Of a stretch of 64,000 nucleotides of DNA, positions 2 through 47,106 are shown piece after piece (the first letter of the stretch is position 1; each line of letters starts with the position of its first letter). The DNA is from Escherichia phage vB_EcoM_VR20. The position numbers and the translations under genes are program-made. The stretch lies in sequence record NC_028894.1, one strand, 5' to 3'. The notes beneath the pieces are model-generated. The model was not told the DNA's origin. It searched no databases and worked only from the letters and a program-made list of their open reading frames with translations.

Positions 2-2236
2 TTATTCCTTATTGGCCGCTTCCACGGCCCTCATGATTTGAGCAACGTTCTGTACTTGTTCAGTTGACATGGCGTTACGGTTATATAAAAAGTGTGAAAC
101 AATCGGGTGATTCTTTTCAAATTCAAAAACCATTTTATCGCTTGTTACCGAAGCGTTTTTGGTCAGGTCGTCATAAATCTTATTACAAAGGACCAATGTT
201 TCCTGCATGGTCTTATCAACCGTTCCACTGTTATATGCGTTATAAGCAAAGAACTTATTGAACTGCATTAGTTCGGCATAGTCGGTGTTCACATCTTTCT
301 GAACATCTTTTGCATAAAAATACTTGAACATAAAATTCAATTCTGCATATTCAGACAGGATAGGAATATAATAACGCGAACGGCTTGAAGCAGCAATGTA
401 CTGGTCCGCATCAACTGAATCAATCAATTCCACATAACGATTGACTGCAGCTTCAATCAGACAATCACACTGCGCCAGCTTGGTAACCTTTTTCTGAAGC
501 TGTGGACGAATAACACAGAATTCATTGATTTCCAACAGATTCGCCAGTTTGCACAATGTCTGGGTCCCGAAGGTCGTGGTGCCATATTCTTGATTCAACG
601 GGGAAATGCTACTGCGGTTAATGAATACAGCATAACCATCGATTTCCTCTGCATCAGCTGCACATGTAAATTCTTCAACAGACTGCCAGCGACCATTGGT
701 TTTAGTCCAACGAATCACCGATGGAGTCTTTGACTTAACACGCTCTTTCGGGTCCGCAACCGGAATCCAGTCTTTTACAAGAGCAGTCAGTTCAGATGTA
801 CGATAGATATTAACTGTATCGCCTTTAAATCGTTCTTGAAGTTGAACCATCAGACGTGTTTGAATTTCGCTGGTTGGGTCAACGAACAATAGACTACTAC
901 CCTGCACAGTCGGAACTTTACCAGATGCTTTGAGCTTTTTGGCTTTCGCGCTGGTGTCATACAGCATTGAACTGATACCACGAATCATCGCAATTCGCCC
1001 TTTAGCATCGTCAATAACAATATTCAAGGTATCATTATGAATACCAAACATGCTTGTCAGGCTTGCAGTATTCGTGTTCGAGCTTGAGTTACGCAGACGT
1101 TTCAGACGGGTAGTGCTATAGATATCATAGACAACCCCGGCATTAATAAGGTCTTTGTCCAGCTCGAACATTTCGTACATCTGGTTAAAAGTCAGTTGTG
1201 ATTTTGTAAATTTCGTTTCAGCATTACGAGCTTTCAGAAAATTACGAGCTTCATAATTCAAACTCTGCAATTCGCGATACGTATGGCGGATACATTCTGA
1301 TTCCTGCCATTTCTTACAATCATCTTCCATGACCTTCTTATCAAGCGATTCAATACGTTCAACGATATTTGCGACCGTACGTTTGTCCAGTGATAATGCT
1401 TCGCGAGAAGGCGCAATATCCAACGAACCCATCGGGAACTTAATAAAGACAACATCATTTTTGGCAGTCATCCAGGTTTTCTTTGTATAACCGTCACCAA
1501 TCGGATAAACAATACCGCCGTAAATTGCATAAAGTCCATAACGTTCTGGGCTGCTATAATCAATACGCGCTGGAGCATAATAATCATCAAATTCTGGGAA
1601 GTAATTAATTTCGCCCACGCCTTGTACTTCAGCTAGCCCAGCAAATGGACGCATGATATATGCAATCTCGTAGCGGAACTTACCAAAATCATTACTATCG
1701 ACCGGGACAACAACTTCAATCCCTGTACGGTCGCCAGGTTTCATTGGTTCGCTAAAGGTTGGTTTAATCTGTGGACCATCGCCGTCCATATAAGCGACAT
1801 AACCATTAACTTGACCATCATGATATGAAATCAGGCTAAACGTCTCTGTATAACTGAACGGAGATTTAGAACCCAGACCAAAGCCACCAATAAAATCATT
1901 GGATTCAGCCTTGGATGATGCAAAGAAACTGTTATACAGACCTGGAGTGTTTTCATCACCACGAATCTGGAAATCACTCATACCTGGACCAAAGTCACGA
2001 CACACAAAACGTGGGTCCAGTTCACCAGGAGCTTGAACAATGAATTTATCCTGACAGCCATTGAGCATATGAGCATCAATCATATTGGTAATCAGCTCAC
2101 GGACAACTGCGCGCACCTTGTTTGTATAAAGGTCGCTGGTCAGAATCTTAAACACCTTCGGAGATGCCTGGATTGTGAATGCTGATGCCTTGGCACCATT
2201 ACCAAGGATTGTTTCCTTTTCAGTTTCTAAAATCAT
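2..2236 (-). CDS. rIIA: rIIA membrane-associated protein with N-terminal GHKL-type ATPase-like region (744 aa)
   Basis: Long ORF; N-terminal ITNMIDAH and GGFGLGSKSPF ATPase-like motifs; size and position (left genome end, downstream of topoisomerase gene) match T4 rIIA. Confidence 0.85.
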   Translation of the reverse strand: MILETEKETILGNGAKASAFTIQASPKVFKILTSDLYTNKVRAVVRELITNMIDAHMLNGCQDKFIVQAPGELDPRFVCRDFGPGMSDFQIRGDENTPGLYNSFFASSKAESNDFIGGFGLGSKSPFSYTETFSLISYHDGQVNGYVAYMDGDGPQIKPTFSEPMKPGDRTGIEVVVPVDSNDFGKFRYEIAYIMRPFAGLAEVQGVGEINYFPEFDDYYAPARIDYSSPERYGLYAIYGGIVYPIGDGYTKKTWMTAKNDVVFIKFPMGSLDIAPSREALSLDKRTVANIVERIESLDKKVMEDDCKKWQESECIRHTYRELQSLNYEARNFLKARNAETKFTKSQLTFNQMYEMFELDKDLINAGVVYDIYSTTRLKRLRNSSSNTNTASLTSMFGIHNDTLNIVIDDAKGRIAMIRGISSMLYDTSAKAKKLKASGKVPTVQGSSLLFVDPTSEIQTRLMVQLQERFKGDTVNIYRTSELTALVKDWIPVADPKERVKSKTPSVIRWTKTNGRWQSVEEFTCAADAEEIDGYAVFINRSSISPLNQEYGTTTFGTQTLCKLANLLEINEFCVIRPQLQKKVTKLAQCDCLIEAAVNRYVELIDSVDADQYIAASSRSRYYIPILSEYAELNFMFKYFYAKDVQKDVNTDYAELMQFNKFFAYNAYNSGTVDKTMQETLVLCNKIYDDLTKNASVTSDKMVFEFEKNHPIVSHFLYNRNAMSTEQVQNVAQIMRAVEAANKE

Positions 2237-2243
2237 GTTTTTC

Positions 2244-2453
2244 TCACTTTATGTTACGTTTGATTAATTCTGCAACTTCAAGAAGTTCATCCTTTGTTGC
2301 GGTGTCTGAAGCTATTTTAATACGGATTTCTTTGAAGCGTTCTTTAAACTCTTCAGCTTCTCTTATATCAAAAAATCGTTGGATAACGCGGTATTCTTTA
2401 TGGACAGCTTTATCAAACAGTTCCATATTAACTTTGAAGTTCGTCATTTCCAA
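2244..2453 (-). CDS. small hypothetical protein at the rIIA.1 position
   Basis: 69-aa ORF, codirectional and tightly packed with rIIA. Confidence 0.4.
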   Translation of the reverse strand: MEMTNFKVNMELFDKAVHKEYRVIQRFFDIREAEEFKERFKEIRIKIASDTATKDELLEVAELIKRNIK

Positions 2454-2712
2454 TCTCCTGTAATATTTTTCTCATACTACGCATGGTAGCTTTATGTTCT
2501 TGGTCATGGTATATCAATGCAAGGAGTGCTTCAATTCGCTCCTCAGGGACCTTCTCGCCAGCCTTAATGCTCATGGCTGTTGTTCTTACAGCTAACAAGT
2601 AACTTCGCTTCCTGTCGCTATCTGGGAGCTCCTGTACCTTCCTCAGGCCTGCTTCCATGATACAGCGTGCAACATTCTGCAGATTAACTAAACTTCCGTC
2701 AGACATAATCAT
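2428..2712 (-). CDS. hypothetical protein
   Basis: 94-aa ORF, codirectional, short overlap with downstream gene. Confidence 0.4.
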   Translation of the reverse strand: MIMSDGSLVNLQNVARCIMEAGLRKVQELPDSDRKRSYLLAVRTTAMSIKAGEKVPEERIEALLALIYHDQEHKATMRSMRKILQEIGNDELQS

Positions 2713-2760
2713 ATTTTCACCTCAAAGACATATTAACACAATTTTTGTGGCTTGTACATA

Positions 2761-2785
2761 ATAAAAAGGTCTCCCGAAGGAGACC
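2761..2785 (-). terminator. stem-loop terminator, GGTCTCC-UUCG-GGAGACC followed by U-run on minus strand
   Basis: Perfect 7-bp stem with UUCG tetraloop then T-run, directly after the stop of the 2791..2979 ORF. Confidence 0.6.
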
Positions 2786-2790
2786 AAATT

Positions 2791-2979
2791 TTATTCTACT
2801 TTATAGACCTGACCATACGCCATGAAAGTTTCACCTTCCCAGGTTTCGCATGTGATTGTTACAAATTCTGCAAACAAAGGTTTTTTCTCTGCCCAGAGAA
2901 AACCATATTCACCGGTAGCGAGTGTAATCCAGTATTTAGTCATATTGTCTCCTAGTAGAGGGAGAATATTCTCCCACAT
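2791..2979 (-). CDS. small hypothetical protein
   Basis: 62-aa ORF between topoisomerase gene and terminator hairpin. Confidence 0.35.
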   Translation of the reverse strand: MWENILPLLGDNMTKYWITLATGEYGFLWAEKKPLFAEFVTITCETWEGETFMAYGQVYKVE

Positions 2980-2983
2980 CTAT

Positions 2984-4816
2984 TTATAGCGTCGCATTCA
3001 TCCAATCTTTACGCTGCTGGGAATCTTTACCGAATAGCATTTCGAACAGTTCTTTCCAGTTGTCGGGCAATTGAACAACTTCGAATACCGGTTCGAGCAA
3101 TACACGTTTATACTCGGAATCTTCCAGAGAGCCAAGCCCCTTGATATATCGGATGGTGTGCTTCGGAAGTTTATCCTTAGCTTCTTCATAATCAGGAAGA
3201 GAATAGAACCATTCTTGTTTATCTTTGAGCTGCGCAATAATAACAGGAGTTTTCACAAAGCGAATTCGTCCTTCATGGAACAGCTCTGGCCAGTTACTGA
3301 AAAACGCCAATAATGATGGATAGATACTACCGACGCCATCCACATCCGCATCTGTCATGATAGCAATGTTTCGGTAATTCATATTCTCGGCCGGTTGCCC
3401 AATCGTTAACCCAGTAATTGCACACACATCAAAGGCTTCAGCGTTCTTCATAACGTCAACAGCTTTCAAACCCCATGTGTTTTTAAACTTACCACGTAAC
3501 GGATAAGCACCTTGCAATTCACGGTCGCGAACCTTGATAAATGGACCCGTTGCAGAATCCCCTTCGGTCAGGAACAAAGTCGTTTCCAGTTTGTCATTGC
3601 CCCATTCGTTGGCCTTGATGTGTTTCTGTACCTTGGCCTTCGAAGCTTTCTTATTCGCCTTAGTCTCTGCAGCTTTCTCTGCCGCCAATTTACGAGCTAA
3701 TGCAGCTTCGACAATCGGCATAATCAGCGATTCATTTTTCAGAATAGCTTGTGCGATTTTCTTGGCATCAATCTTAATGTGATTTCGAATTTCACCAGCC
3801 GGGGAAGTCAATCGTTCCTTGGTCTGGGAATCAAATCGCATATTGCTCATATCGCGGATGAACATAAGCATGGTGAGGCATTCTTTAACTCGTGCCTTGG
3901 TCACCTCGATACCTTTGTATTTGCGCTTAATGGCTGGTTGGAGGTGTTCACAGATATCATCCATAACACATTCAACGTGGTGCCCACCATTCTTTGTATG
4001 GATGTTGTTAACATAAGTCAACTGACGGAAACCGTCTGGGCTGGTCGTGAAAGCCATTGATACCGTATCCGTTTCCTGGATAACAACTTCAGTCCCGAAT
4101 TGTTTGGAGAACTTCTTGAAGTTGCCATCAACCTTTTTACCATTAAAGGTGAACTGAATATCCGGGTAAACAACCGCAAGAGTCTGCAGACGGTCCAATG
4201 TAATATCCAGATAAATCTGGGACAAACTATTTTCTTCGAAGTGGCTAAAGTCCGGAACAAAGATAACAGTTGTGCCTTTACCCTTAGATTTCTTGGTAGA
4301 CCAACCTTTGTTTTCCATACCGTTGGAGCAGTTAACAGTAATTTCATTTACACCATCAGCGGTAATCCCTGTAAACAATACAGAGAAAATATTGGTCAGA
4401 GAAGACCCGACGCCATTCATCCCACCGGTTTTACGTTCAGCATCATCACCGAAGTTGCCCCCAGCTTTTGGAATAGTCCACGCTGCAACTGGCCCAGGGA
4501 TTTGTTCACCGCTTTGGTCGACAACCATTGCCTGCGGAATACCACGACCATTATCAGAAACTGAAATCTGATTATCTTTAATTTGAACATCAATTTTATT
4601 GGCAAATTTAAAACTGGTGCGAATTGCTTCATCAACAGAGTTATCGATAATTTCATCAATCAGTTTTACAATACCAGGAACATAGCTTACGGACTTATAT
4701 TCACCAAACAAGAATCGCTCATGCGCTTCATTTGAACTGGAACCAATATACATCCCGGAACGTTTTTTGATATGCTCGACGTCCGAGAGTACTTTAATTT
4801 CATTATTAATCATCAT
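2984..4816 (-). CDS. 39: DNA topoisomerase II large subunit, fused 39+60 type (GyrB-like ATPase plus Toprim)
   Basis: 610-aa ORF; GHKL ATPase motifs (DNSVDEAI, GGHHVECV region) and Toprim-like LTEGDSA and MTDADVDG motifs; T4 gene 39 position. Confidence 0.9.
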   Translation of the reverse strand: MMINNEIKVLSDVEHIKKRSGMYIGSSSNEAHERFLFGEYKSVSYVPGIVKLIDEIIDNSVDEAIRTSFKFANKIDVQIKDNQISVSDNGRGIPQAMVVDQSGEQIPGPVAAWTIPKAGGNFGDDAERKTGGMNGVGSSLTNIFSVLFTGITADGVNEITVNCSNGMENKGWSTKKSKGKGTTVIFVPDFSHFEENSLSQIYLDITLDRLQTLAVVYPDIQFTFNGKKVDGNFKKFSKQFGTEVVIQETDTVSMAFTTSPDGFRQLTYVNNIHTKNGGHHVECVMDDICEHLQPAIKRKYKGIEVTKARVKECLTMLMFIRDMSNMRFDSQTKERLTSPAGEIRNHIKIDAKKIAQAILKNESLIMPIVEAALARKLAAEKAAETKANKKASKAKVQKHIKANEWGNDKLETTLFLTEGDSATGPFIKVRDRELQGAYPLRGKFKNTWGLKAVDVMKNAEAFDVCAITGLTIGQPAENMNYRNIAIMTDADVDGVGSIYPSLLAFFSNWPELFHEGRIRFVKTPVIIAQLKDKQEWFYSLPDYEEAKDKLPKHTIRYIKGLGSLEDSEYKRVLLEPVFEVVQLPDNWKELFEMLFGKDSQQRKDWMNATL

Positions 4817-4861
4817 CTTTCCTCTTGTGTATGGAGGTATTATAAGTCACATATTTTAAAG

Positions 4862-4880
4862 CAAAAAGGCCCGAAGGCCT
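4862..4880 (-). terminator. stem-loop terminator, AGGCC-UUCG-GGCCU plus U-run
   Basis: Hairpin with UUCG loop and T-run overlapping the stop of the lipoprotein gene. Confidence 0.55.
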
Positions 4881-5140
4881 TATTCAAATCGAATGGTTGA
4901 ATTCTTGAACAACAATCCAGAACAAACAGTTCCTTTGACCTGTTTACCGGTCGGACCCACTGCTGTAAAACCAGTACGTTGGAAGTCATCTTCAGAACAC
5001 CCAAACAAACTATACCCAGTGATTTGGATTTGCTCAAAACCATTGGCATTCAAAACCTTAGTAGCATTATCGGCGTCAGTGCACCCGACCAGAGAAACGG
5101 CAAGAACCAGTGCAGCAATAGAACGATTTACGTATTTCAT
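4880..5140 (-). CDS. putative lipoprotein
   Basis: 86-aa ORF with signal peptide ending in lipobox-like LVGC. Confidence 0.5.
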   Translation of the reverse strand: MKYVNRSIAALVLAVSLVGCTDADNATKVLNANGFEQIQITGYSLFGCSEDDFQRTGFTAVGPTGKQVKGTVCSGLLFKNSTIRFE

Positions 5141-5952: not shown

Positions 5953-6435
5953 TTATGCTTTTGCTGCGCCGCAATAATTAAAGATAAACTGCTCCGGGAC
6001 TACTTTATATGTTCCACGGAATACAATGTTGTAAAGCTTAACACCATCTTCAACCCACTGGTCTGTAATCCAACCTGCCATTTCTTTAGTTTCATATGCA
6101 TCGCCATACGGTTTAAATGGAACTGGAGTTATGAAACGAATACTTTTACCTAATTTCCATTTAAAATCAACACCAACATGAGACTGGTCAATGGTTTCAA
6201 CTTCTTCAACTACTGGAGCGATATATCCAGTAAATTCAGTTGATTCCAGGAATTTAGGATGTACATAAGCCAATTGAGTTTCAGTATGGCCATGTTTAGG
6301 AATAATACGCACTTTAACTTCTTTAATTCCACCTACTAAATTAGTGCGAAGACCCACAACCTCAACAAAACGCCCAGCAGCTTTAGAACGAGATTCTTTA
6401 GAAACACGTACAATATCACCAGCTTCAACTTTCAT
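5953..6435 (-). CDS. hypothetical protein sharing a C-terminal domain with the next gene
   Basis: 160-aa ORF; C-terminal GWITDQWVEDGVKLYNIVF...VVP also present in the 6512..7267 product. Confidence 0.5.
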   Translation of the reverse strand: MKVEAGDIVRVSKESRSKAAGRFVEVVGLRTNLVGGIKEVKVRIIPKHGHTETQLAYVHPKFLESTEFTGYIAPVVEEVETIDQSHVGVDFKWKLGKSIRFITPVPFKPYGDAYETKEMAGWITDQWVEDGVKLYNIVFRGTYKVVPEQFIFNYCGAAKA

Positions 6436-6511: not shown

Positions 6512-7267
6512 TTAATTATAAATTTTAACTACCATAGAACGTGGTACAACAGTAAATTCACCAGCATGGACAACGTTCAGGAGTTCAACACCATCTTCAA
6601 TCCACTGGTCTGTTACCCAACCACAAATGGAACTATTAAATGGGCGTTTGATTTGAACTGGTTTACATAGCAAGTCAATAGGGTCACCCAGCTCGCTAAC
6701 TTCTTCCAGCAGTACAGATTCACGCGGATAAAGGATAGCTTCAAGATTGTCACCTGATTCGTTGACTGCAGTAAATTCAAAGATGCTTTGGTGATTGTGG
6801 TACTTAACTGTTTTAACGGTAAATGGAGTAAATCCAAAAATACCTTTCAGTACCCGCCAACCAGCATGCATTGCGACAGTCTTTCCAAATTGACTATCAT
6901 CTTCAATAAGCTGATAGGTTTTACCAACTTTGATAGGAGTTTCTTCAACTTCTTTGAAGAGTTCAATCTCAGCTTCATAAACCATAATTTTTTCTACTTC
7001 ATTTGTATCAAGGCGACGTGCATGTAGAATATATGCTTTATCAAACCAGTTACTTTTTACAAAAGTTTCAACAATAAATTCACCTTCACCTAAAGCATCA
7101 GTCAGAGTATTATACCCAGAAACCATAGCTGCATTTTGAATAATAGGTTCAACCAGTTGATAAGTTTTGTTAATTTCAATAGTCATATTTTGTTTCTCAA
7201 GTTTTAATGGTTTAATTGGGCGAACATACATACTTACAACATCAAAGTCAATAAATTCTGGTTTCAT
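6512..7267 (-). CDS. hypothetical protein, paralog of the 5953..6435 product, with internal KTYQL repeat
   Basis: 251-aa ORF; C-terminal GWVTDQWIEDGVELLNVV...VVP; INKTYQLVEP and VGKTYQLIED internal repeats. Confidence 0.5.
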   Translation of the reverse strand: MKPEFIDFDVVSMYVRPIKPLKLEKQNMTIEINKTYQLVEPIIQNAAMVSGYNTLTDALGEGEFIVETFVKSNWFDKAYILHARRLDTNEVEKIMVYEAEIELFKEVEETPIKVGKTYQLIEDDSQFGKTVAMHAGWRVLKGIFGFTPFTVKTVKYHNHQSIFEFTAVNESGDNLEAILYPRESVLLEEVSELGDPIDLLCKPVQIKRPFNSSICGWVTDQWIEDGVELLNVVHAGEFTVVPRSMVVKIYN

Positions 7268-43814: not shown

Positions 43815-44010
43815 ATCGGTGTTTACAATGTCTGCATTTATATTGAAGCGGAGAGCTACGCCAATAAGTCAATTGGACCTGTTCAGTTCCACATTCAGGG
43901 CAGTTCGGAACGTTTTTAGAAGCGCGTTCACGTCGTTCGACAATTTTAATAATCGCATTCCAATCAGGAATCCCGTATTCTGCAATGTCTTCTCTTAAAC
44001 GTTGTTTCAT
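43786..44010 (-). CDS. small zinc-ribbon protein
   Basis: 74 aa; CPECG...CRHCKH. Confidence 0.4.
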
Positions 44011-44999
44011 TTCAGCAGCTCCAGAGCCTGCTCCAGTTTATCCAGACGATTGGTTGATTCTTCCCAAAGTCGCTTGACTTTTGTATAGTCTTCCGTTGCC
44101 TTTTTATTAACAGCAAGAGCTTCATTATACGCTGTTTCCAGGGCAACAATTTCAGGCGCTTTTTGTTTCACTGGTTCATTATTCAGATTATCAATCAGGT
44201 CTTCAAGGGTGGTAACTTCTTGCGGTGTATTCATAATTTCCTCATTTTTCTTTTTATAGATTTCTGCAATAGTTGGTTGTTTTGCGCATTTAACTTCGCG
44301 TAATGTCACCGCAATTTTCCAACCTTTCCAACCATGAGCACTGGTGATAGGGTCTACTTTAATTTTTTCAACAGTGCGCATATAATTAAGGGCACACTGT
44401 ACCTGATGAGTAAGAACACATGCAATATCAAGATACTTTTTAACATTTTCTGGGGTAGCTTGTGGAGTAAAGAACTCATACTTAACTGTAATAATTACCT
44501 GGTTTTCACCAGACTCTTTAACATTTATCATGTGCTCAGCCAGATGGGAGATAGTGCGAAAATCACCACCCATCAATTTTGTCGCTGATTTGATGATAGA
44601 CATTTTGTTATCTCTGAATTCACGTGCCCAGCAATTTGCGAATTCAGAAGCAGTATAGCCTTGTTTATCGAGATAGTATTTTTCAACATCACCAAACCAA
44701 TGATATCCAATTGTACCTTTACCGCGTCTGGATTCAACACCAAACTTATTAAGAAGGTCTTTATTAACCAGGTATGCCAGGACTCGGGAACCTTTAAAAG
44801 TTTTCTTGATATCATCGTTACCAGCACGACTCGCAATAGTTGCAATGTCTTTCTTGAAGCGGCCAGATGCAACAATCGTCGAGTCAATCTGATTTAACCA
44901 GAAATTGATAATTGAAAGGATAGCCGATTCACCTATTAATGGTTTTACTTTTGAATCGATAGTGGTGTTAAAGGCCTGGATATATTCATTACGTGTCAT
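44007..44999 (-). CDS. hypothetical protein with C-terminal coiled coil
   Basis: 330-aa ORF. Confidence 0.5.
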   Translation of the reverse strand: MTRNEYIQAFNTTIDSKVKPLIGESAILSIINFWLNQIDSTIVASGRFKKDIATIASRAGNDDIKKTFKGSRVLAYLVNKDLLNKFGVESRRGKGTIGYHWFGDVEKYYLDKQGYTASEFANCWAREFRDNKMSIIKSATKLMGGDFRTISHLAEHMINVKESGENQVIITVKYEFFTPQATPENVKKYLDIACVLTHQVQCALNYMRTVEKIKVDPITSAHGWKGWKIAVTLREVKCAKQPTIAEIYKKKNEEIMNTPQEVTTLEDLIDNLNNEPVKQKAPEIVALETAYNEALAVNKKATEDYTKVKRLWEESTNRLDKLEQALELLK

Positions 45000-45057
45000 A
45001 GTGTTCTCCTCATAAAGTAGGAATTCATTATACTCCCTCCATCCTTGGAAGTAAACA

Positions 45058-45990
45058 TTATTTTAATGCTTTGATTGCAGCTTGCAATTTATTGCGTTGT
45101 TTTTCCATGTTCTTGATGCGATTCAGAACATCCTGGATACCCTTTTTCTCATCTTCAATCAGACCATTTAAACGGTTGACTGATTCCTGGATAGTATCAG
45201 CATGATAGCTCTCAATAGGCTTCATCGTAGGGTTAGTAACCACTATAGAATTATAAGGTTTAATTTTCCACTGATACTGTTTGGAATCGAATGGACCAGG
45301 CACCGCGGTGGTTTTGAATTTGTCATAGGCTGCATACTGGCCTACGCTGTCACATGATACTGTAGAGGTAGCGATAGAGATACGTTCCATTTCTGGTTCC
45401 TTTTTCTCTTGATAAGGAGCATAAGACAAAAGATATTCTTTAGTTAATTTAATATCAATGGCTATAGTTTTAAGGAATTTTTCCGTTTGGTGGATATAAT
45501 TTGTATCTTCATCAAACGTGTACGATTCAACAGCATGGCGCATATAAAACAGCGCAATACCCATAACCTCTTTAAAGTTATGACAAAGAGCAACATCGCC
45601 CTTGGTGGTTGGTTTGAACTTAATCTGTACACCATCATTCTTGATATTGATAATCAAGTTGTCAGAGTTAAAATTATAGTTCTTGATGTTAACCGGAGCT
45701 TTGCGAATACGAAATCCGCCGGCCAGAATTTCCTTGATACTCTTACGAACCGTGGCACCAAACAAAAACGCTGGGCGGCGGCAGTAATCATTCAGAGAGT
45801 TAATTCTTACAATACGTTGGCCATACCCCTGGGTAGCAGAACCTGATTTGATTTTGCCAAAGTTAACCAAAGAATTCATTGCGATAAGACGAGTCACACG
45901 ACCGTCATGTGGTTCATAACTACTAGCATATTCAGCGCGAGTTTTAATTTTCATATCATAGTCCAAATAATTTTTCATAAAATTTAGCAA
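45058..45990 (-). CDS. hypothetical protein with C-terminal coiled coil
   Basis: 310-aa ORF. Confidence 0.5.
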   Translation of the reverse strand: MLNFMKNYLDYDMKIKTRAEYASSYEPHDGRVTRLIAMNSLVNFGKIKSGSATQGYGQRIVRINSLNDYCRRPAFLFGATVRKSIKEILAGGFRIRKAPVNIKNYNFNSDNLIINIKNDGVQIKFKPTTKGDVALCHNFKEVMGIALFYMRHAVESYTFDEDTNYIHQTEKFLKTIAIDIKLTKEYLLSYAPYQEKKEPEMERISIATSTVSCDSVGQYAAYDKFKTTAVPGPFDSKQYQWKIKPYNSIVVTNPTMKPIESYHADTIQESVNRLNGLIEDEKKGIQDVLNRIKNMEKQRNKLQAAIKALK

Positions 45991-46171
45991 TAGGCCAAAA
46001 CACCATCATAATTGCCCAAACAAACCAAAGCAGAGGCCATACTAGTGTAATGAATACTGCGTCATAGCTTGATTCAATTTCGATTGGATTCCAATCACCC
46101 GATTTATGAATGATAATGGTCGTTATGAATCCTAGCACAAAGTAAAGGAGAATAAAACCTACTATTTCCAT
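45956..46171 (-). CDS. small membrane protein
   Basis: 71-aa ORF with two hydrophobic segments. Confidence 0.4.
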   Translation of the reverse strand: MEIVGFILLYFVLGFITTIIIHKSGDWNPIEIESSYDAVFITLVWPLLWFVWAIMMVFWPIAKFYEKLFGL

Positions 46172-46257
46172 ATTAACCTACACGATATTTGAGAATATAA
46201 GCCACAGAATACCTGTGGCGACAATTACATAACCAAGAACAGCAAGCCATTCCATCA

Positions 46258-47106
46258 TTAATCCTTAAGCAATTCAATAACGTTCATCAGTTTTTGACGT
46301 TCAGCTTTTGCTGCACTGTTCAGTCCTGACAGGCGGAAAATTTCATCATCTTGTTGCTGGATGGTGATGTTAAGTTCTTCAATCTGTTTAGTGAAAAGCT
46401 CAATTTGCTCTGAATATTTTTCATTGCTTCGCACTGGAACAGGTTCCATTTTAGGAGCTTGCTCTGAAGGACTATCAACTACAACTCGGTCTTTAATTTG
46501 ACATAATTTAATACGCTGGACGCCTCCAGTTTTAACATCATAAAATACAAGAATTCCATGGGTCTCTAGTTCAGACAAAGCCAAACGGAGGTGGAATTTC
46601 CAGTTTTCGTATTGACATCCGCTAAAAGAAGAAATACTGTATTCGCCTTCATTTTGACCTTTAATAACATTAAATAGTTTGTAATCTAAAGAATTATTGG
46701 TTTTAAAGGTCATTTGTTTATCTTGACCGCTTGCCAGACGAGCACCAAGAGCTAATAAACGTCGTTGGTTAGTATGAAGGTCTTTGACCACTTCATCAAA
46801 TGTCATGGTGCTAATCGCACGACCATAAAGGTCATAACCTTTATTATAATTTTTAAGTAAAATTTTGGCATTAGCACGAGACAACATACCCGAACGTTGA
46901 AGAGATTTCATGACTCGGTCTTCTAATGTAAGCAAGCCCGTTGTTTTATTAAAGATTTTAGTGAATTCAGCAGAATTAGTACAAACATTGAACTTATTCC
47001 ACATCATATATAAAACATTTAAAACCACATCTTTAGTGCTCGGAATACTGTTAAATTTAACAACTTTTTTAACTTCAGAACGAATTTCATTAATTGCTTG
47101 TGACAT
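46258..47106 (-). CDS. hypothetical protein with C-terminal coiled coil
   Basis: 282-aa ORF. Confidence 0.5.
   Translation of the reverse strand: MSQAINEIRSEVKKVVKFNSIPSTKDVVLNVLYMMWNKFNVCTNSAEFTKIFNKTTGLLTLEDRVMKSLQRSGMLSRANAKILLKNYNKGYDLYGRAISTMTFDEVVKDLHTNQRRLLALGARLASGQDKQMTFKTNNSLDYKLFNVIKGQNEGEYSISSFSGCQYENWKFHLRLALSELETHGILVFYDVKTGGVQRIKLCQIKDRVVVDSPSEQAPKMEPVPVRSNEKYSEQIELFTKQIEELNITIQQQDDEIFRLSGLNSAAKAERQKLMNVIELLKD

Follow-up and report, generated by a model that had tools for sequence, protein, structure and literature searches.

An uninterrupted gene 39 encodes the topoisomerase II large subunit of Escherichia phage vB_EcoM_VR20

Gene 39 and its genomic neighbourhood

The analysed stretch of 64,000 nucleotides from Escherichia phage vB_EcoM_VR20 (NC_028894.1), hereafter called the window, was placed in the genus Gaprivervirus by megablast over 4 kb, with nucleotide identities of 94.7% to TH54, 94.5% to VR25 and 93.6% to SP18. 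The gene for the large subunit of the phage topoisomerase and the signals preceding it are located as follows:

2984..4816, minus strand: gene 39, topoisomerase II large subunit, uninterrupted (ORF listing, blastp, profile search)
4820..4824, minus strand: Shine-Dalgarno sequence GAGGA, with distances of 4 nt and 7 nt from the end of its GAGG core to the first and second ATG, respectively
4839..4863, minus strand: putative MotA-dependent middle promoter composed of TGCTTTA (4857-4863), a 12-nt spacer and TATAAT (4839-4844) (sequence and MotA-box consensus)
4866..4881, minus strand: terminator-like hairpin AAGGCCTTCGGGCCTT with a T-run after gene 39.1 (conserved in VR25, SP18, T4 and T6)

Counted from the first ATG, the ORF comprises 610 codons with zero internal stops (ORF listing and codon display), and it matches the profile phrog_543 'DNA topoisomerase II large subunit' over aa 1-609 with an E-value of 9e-279. 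The single 610-aa ORF of the initial annotation is hence confirmed, with two additions regarding its strand (minus), which had been left unstated, and its start. The ORF opens with ATGATG (4811-4816), and translation probably begins at the second of these codons (4813), which would yield a protein of 609 aa, because VR7, T4 and T6 exhibit the second ATG only, at a distance of 7 nt from GAGG, and because VR25, whose DNA is identical to that of the window in the start region, is nevertheless annotated from the second ATG. The numbering below follows the 610-aa ORF.

The motif TGCTTTA is presumably a MotA box, an assignment that we base on the consensus; T4 and T6 harbor the arrangement AGCTTTA-12 nt-TATAAT at the matching place. 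A generic sigma-70 scan did not report the promoter at 4839..4863 among its predictions. From the motifs upstream of the gene we infer that gene 39 is expressed from a middle promoter.

The gene order of the window is rIIA (2..2236), rIIA.1 (2244..2453; Pfam T4_RIIA1), a DUF7367 gene (2428..2712), a PHROG 4369 gene and gene 39, followed by 39.1, 39.2, goF/cef, motB, dexA and dda, which corresponds to the order in the rIIA-39-dda region of T4. The DUF7367 gene (minus strand, 94 aa, E=4e-38) has a 26-nt overlap with the start of rIIA.1, which is likewise encoded on the minus strand. The ORF located downstream of gene 39 (2791-2979, minus strand) has a length of 62 aa, and PHROG 4369 matches only its aa 13-62, equivalent to positions 1-50 of the 50-position profile. 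The gene therefore probably starts at the ATG at 2943 and encodes 50 aa, in agreement with the annotation of SP18, VR7 and VR25. It is followed by a strong bidirectional terminator-like hairpin, GGTCTCCCGAAGGAGACC (2768-2785). The interval between gene 39 and rIIA.1 differs among the phages compared: the window contains the DUF7367 gene and the 50-aa gene, T6 is devoid of genes in this interval, and T4 carries gene 60 and mobA remnants.

Two further observations concern more distant parts of the window. The ORFs in the positions of MotB (5953-6435, minus strand, 160 aa) and MotB.1 (6512-7267, minus strand, 251 aa) have a C-terminal segment of about 55 aa in common (GW[IV]TDQW[IV]EDGV..L.N[IV]V..G.[FY].VVP; 40% identity, E=6e-12), which suggests that they share a domain or go back to an old duplication. 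In the region 44007-47106 (minus strand), ORFs of 330, 310 and 282 aa follow one another, and each has a coiled-coil-like end rich in Leu, Lys and Glu; a BLASTP comparison of the 330-aa with the 310-aa ORF provided no significant similarity (E=0.8).

Domain composition and closest relatives of gp39

The domains were assigned by Pfam profiles, motif scans and alignments:

4247..4669, minus strand: GHKL ATPase domain, aa 50-190 (Pfam HATPase_c, E=2.4e-10, 41.2 bits versus a cut-off of 26.4)
3659..4066, minus strand: transducer domain, aa 251-386 (Pfam DNA_gyraseB, E=1.9e-15, 57.2 bits versus a cut-off of 27)
3332..3580, minus strand: core of the Toprim domain, aa 413-495 (sub-threshold Pfam Toprim match, motifs and colinear alignments)
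2993..3250, minus strand: TOPRIM_C or GyrB-tail region, aa 523-608 (Pfam TOPRIM_C, E=1.1e-8, above the cut-off)

The GHKL signatures that were checked, namely the N-box ExxxN, the G1 box DxGxG and the glycine motifs of the G2 box and ATP-lid, are all present in the form of EIIDNSVDE (55-63), DNGRGIP (88-94) and GGMNGVGS (131-138). The transducer domain contains the QTK loop with its lysine at aa 331-333, and the TOPRIM_C region the motif KGLG at aa 559-562. The Pfam match for the Toprim domain scores 16.2 bits and lies under the gathering cut-off of 23.1; the region exhibits the catalytic Glu of EGDSA (418-422), PLRGK (439-443) and the acidic DxDxD motif DADVDG (489-494), and it aligns with the Toprim of T6 gp39 and of human, yeast and bacterial type IIA structures. 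EGDSA and DADVDG are encoded in one frame and reside on one continuous chain. The claim that one ORF spans both the ATPase and the Toprim region hence stands, and the full set of type IIA catalytic motifs is, as judged from the sequence, intact. The protein classifies as the ATPase/Toprim subunit of a type IIA topoisomerase (T-even gp39/GyrB/ParE; PHROG 543).

The closest characterised equivalent is gp39 of T6. Residues 1-604 of the T6 chain (PDB 8ylu_C) correspond to aa 2-607 of the window protein with 74% identity (E=0) and 5 gap columns in the whole protein, and an engineered gp39-gp60 fusion of T4 (8yo3_C) is matched as well. The gp39 of T6 and T2 (605 aa; PDB 8ylu and related entries; PMC11461880) resembles that of the window in being a single, naturally fused polypeptide with the same domain order, and the upstream layout of T6 is also equivalent (terminator hairpin, MotA-box-like motif, TATAAT, Shine-Dalgarno sequence). 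The differences comprise about 26% of the residues, a C-terminus that is 2 residues longer in the window (..NATL versus ..SQ), and an RB69ORF005c-like ORF upstream of gene 39, which is present in T6 but not in the window. Bacterial GyrB and ParE and the N-terminal half of eukaryotic Topo II have the same GHKL-transducer-Toprim architecture and motifs but are far more distant (PDB matches: human TOP2A, E=1e-60; yeast Top2, 3e-51; S. pneumoniae ParE, 7e-47; E. coli GyrB, 6e-35). The phage enzyme lacks the insertion of about 170 aa found in enterobacterial GyrB, and the enzyme of T4 relaxes DNA but is not known to supercoil it.

Within Gaprivervirus, gp39 of SP18 (ADO19347), VR25 (AIZ02349) and VR7 (ADR32380) has the same length, genomic position and flanking genes as that of the window and differs by few substitutions. 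The coordinates of gene 39 in SP18 are even identical (2984..4816). Amino-acid identity to the window protein amounts to 99.2% in SP18 and to 98.2-98.4% in VR7 and VR25. The high conservation of gp39 compared with the nucleotide identity of 93.6% to SP18 across the surrounding 4 kb suggests purifying selection. The genes of VR7 and VR25 bear the annotation 'DNA topoisomerase II large subunit'. In SP18 (record piece 2485-4317) and CJ20 (MT533174), the gene has its full length of 610 aa but carries the label 'topoisomerase II large subunit N-terminal region', which is wrong, a legacy carry-over from phages with a split gene.

ATP-dependent strand-passage activity has been shown for the enzymes of T6 and T4 (PMC11461880). 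Given the 74% identity to the characterised T6 subunit, the gp39 of VR20 is expected to function in the same way. The single GyrB-like polypeptide, composed of the GHKL ATPase, the transducer, the Toprim domain and a C-terminal tail, would assemble as two copies with two GyrA-like gp52 into a heterotetramer gp39(2)gp52(2), by homology with the enzymes of T6 and T4. Binding and hydrolysis of ATP at the N-terminal gate would drive the passage of one DNA duplex through a transient double-strand break, and the acidic Toprim residues would hold the Mg2+ for cleavage and religation. A tblastn search for gp52 found no match in the 64-kb window, which is expected because gene 52 of T4 lies beyond rIIB and the window starts at rIIA. 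In VR25, gp52 is located at 164742-166121, a position syntenic with T4 and about 4 kb upstream of rIIB.

The split and bypass sites of T4 and their counterparts in VR20

In T4, the same enzyme is encoded by gene 39 and gene 60, and a comparison with both proteins at the codon level allowed us to pinpoint the corresponding positions in the window:

2996..3391, minus strand: gp60-equivalent (T4 gp60 28-159 = window aa 476-607), continuing the gp39-equivalent part in the same frame without a break (blastp, tblastn)
3389..3412, minus strand: empty MobA site, 5' boundary (T4/RB14 aa 466-473 = window aa 469-476; codon-level comparison with T4 and T6)
3332..3337, minus strand: codons GGC GTC (G494 V495), equivalent to the T4 take-off codon GGA and the landing position and contiguous here (codon display, alignment of T4 gene 60)

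The alignment to T4 gp39 and gp60 that the initial annotation had proposed showed both parts to be colinear. Residues 1-473 of gp39 correspond to aa 2-476 of the window protein (blastp, 73% identity, E=0), and the gp60-equivalent C-terminus is not missing but follows directly (blastp, 70% identity, E=9e-70). The catalytic motifs are the same over these shared parts. Profiles of the gp60 type, phrog_7229 (aa 455-608) and phrog_19082 (aa 478-494), were also found on the window ORF. A tblastn search with T4 gp60 against the whole 64-kb window provided 2996..3391 as the sole match (E=2.7e-66), and no second gp60 copy or displaced gp60-like fragment was detected. The absence of a separate gene 60, as claimed initially, is consequently borne out, since the only gp60-like sequence of the window sits within gene 39.

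The T4 residues without counterpart in the window protein are gp39 474-516 and gp60 1-27 (blastp), both of which are extensions that stem from the MobA element. T4 differs from the window by an insertion of about 1.1 kb with a mobA pseudogene, by the resulting 43-aa extension on gp39 and a unique leader of about 30 aa on gp60, and by a re-encoded homologous region of 16 aa and a coding gap of 50 nt. The Toprim domain is divided between gp39 and gp60 in T4, whereas it forms one chain in the window.

Based on the published definition of the MobA insertion site (bioRxiv 10.1101/2022.08.31.505936), the site is empty in the window, which reads ...GLTIGQPA|ENMNY... without a C-terminal extension. 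Across the whole split site the window protein has the sequence ...GLTIGQPA-ENMNYRNIAIMTDADVDG-VGSIYPS... and T6 the equally long ...GLVLGEKA-ENLNYHNIAIMTDADHDG-LGSIYPS..., and T4 gene 39 departs from the shared sequence after ...GLVLGEKA into its 43-aa extension. The segment from CAITG to GSIYPS is of the same length in the window and T6, with zero extra residues. The bypass site (DADVDG|VGS, aa 489-497) is represented by the unbroken codons GAT GGC GTC GGT (3340-3329), with neither a stop nor a gap, in contrast to T4, where DADHD and the take-off codon GGA give way to TAG and then to the 50-nt gap.

Searches for remnants of the cassette were negative throughout the 64-kb window. The take-off hairpin of T4 has zero matches at up to 3 mismatches, the intact MobA of T4T as query was not found (best tblastn E=0.64), and neither the C-terminal nor the N-terminal extension of T4 has a significant tblastn match. 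The gp39 extension gave one weak hit at 45592-45678 (E=0.009, with a very small database), which falls within the unrelated 310-aa ORF and is regarded as a chance match. The statement that no split or bypass element is visible therefore holds at both sites, where the ORF is continuous, and for the hairpin, MobA and T4-type extensions. Gene 39 of VR20 does not belong to the MobA-split class represented by genes 39 and 60 of T4, and since there is no MobA split, no recoding is needed.

Prevalence and origin of the unsplit gene

The distribution of the two forms was investigated with the T4 insertion (1,104 bp, comprising the gene 39 tail, mobA/60.1, and the gene 60 leader with the gap) and with a junction query of 124 aa that spans both T4 junctions. 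The insertion is present in 43 of 50,697 phage records, all with at least 95% identity. The junction query matched 1,996 records, 1,901 of which contain at least 80% of it at a single place. That other T4-like phages carry the fused form, as stated initially, is supported, and this form represents the majority state. The unsplit form is common and ancestral, and the T4 split is an exception due to a mobile element. The arrangement seen in VR20 has already been described and annotated.

MobA-split genes have been reported for 28 genomes of six clades; for each clade there is an unsplit "parental" relative of near-identical sequence, and the insertions were judged to be recent and independent (bioRxiv 10.1101/2022.08.31.505936). 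The topoisomerases of T2 and T6 are composed of two subunits and have relaxation activity (PMC11461880). The continuity of gene 39 in VR20 is best explained by its never having acquired the MobA homing-endonuclease element of about 1.1 kb, or at least by its having kept no trace of it; it is this element that divides Toprim between gp39 and gp60 in T4 and a few relatives and introduces the 50-nt translational bypass.

We consider the ORF with a probability of about 0.97 to be an ordinary full-length gene 39, encoding the large (ATPase and Toprim) subunit of a T4-like phage topoisomerase II. A secondary re-fusion, in which the single ORF was restored after an ancestor had first carried and then shed the cassette with the MobA split and bypass, is very improbable. 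Such events are on record, namely as the 'hit and run' scenario proposed for some Aeromonas phages (bioRxiv 10.1101/2022.08.31.505936), and recombination with an unsplit allele would be a scarless replacement. However, known re-fused genes keep sequence derived from the terminal extensions, whereas the segment from CAITG to GSIYPS has exactly the T6 length in the window and neither T4 extension gives a significant match. Moreover, the 361-bp junction segment is uninterrupted in all 32 genus-level records (at least 92.8% nucleotide identity). Fainter still is the notion that the long ORF represents a copy in decay or without function, or that an artefact of assembly masks a real interruption. 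Its sole hint is the designation 'N-terminal region' in SP18 and CJ20, but this sits on a complete CDS of 610 aa with the same coordinates and represents a transfer from split-gene annotations. The intact catalytic motifs, an amino-acid identity to relatives (98-99%) that exceeds the nucleotide identity (about 93-95%), and the same uninterrupted segment in 32 independently sequenced relatives all speak for a functional gene and against an artefact.

An apparent interruption of gene 39 in SP18, VR7, CJ20 and RZ, with an extra 400-1,100 bp and matches in two or three pieces, was rejected after inspection of annotation and alignment, as the extra DNA is located upstream, between genes 39 and 39.1. 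The junction between these two genes, an intergenic region at 4817-4879 in the window, varies within the genus. VR7 (record piece 4311-5006) and RZ (record piece 3323-4030) contain a gene of 231-235 aa of the Endonuclease VII family (Pfam PF02945, E ~1e-18) immediately upstream of gene 39, and SP18, RZ and T6 an RB69ORF005c-like ORF at the junction. The site is empty in the window and VR25, which have neither the endonuclease gene nor the RB69ORF005c-like ORF. Compared with the window, gene 39 of VR7 shows an identity of 81% over nt 1-100 and of 90-100% elsewhere, and that of RZ an identity of 56-79% over approximately nt 1-1,100 and of 89-98% thereafter. These mosaic 5' ends beside an endonuclease gene resemble the pattern of co-conversion around a free-standing homing endonuclease.

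A tentative reading, which we regard as possible but rather doubtful, is that gene 39 of VR20 represents an unoccupied and still cleavable homing site, both for a MobA-type element within the Toprim coding region (aa 469-494) and for the upstream gene of the Endonuclease VII family. If so, VR20 would receive either element when infecting together with a carrier, and homing of this kind would have left the mosaic 5' ends of VR7 and RZ as co-conversion tracts. The MobA target differs from that of T6 by 29-35% of its nucleotides, with 34 of 48 positions identical in the homologous region and 82 of 126 in the wider region. Alternatively, this divergence could make the site naturally immune, which might be a reason why no Gaprivervirus has the split.

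Whatever its susceptibility to homing, the proper name for the ordinary full-length gene 39 of VR20 is "DNA topoisomerase II large subunit" and not "N-terminal region", and neither a gene 60 nor a recoding event is to be sought in this genome. The gene is a further unsplit "parental" allele, and it fits the view that the three-subunit enzyme of T4 and its translational bypass go back to a recent MobA insertion and do not represent a general trait of T4-like phages.
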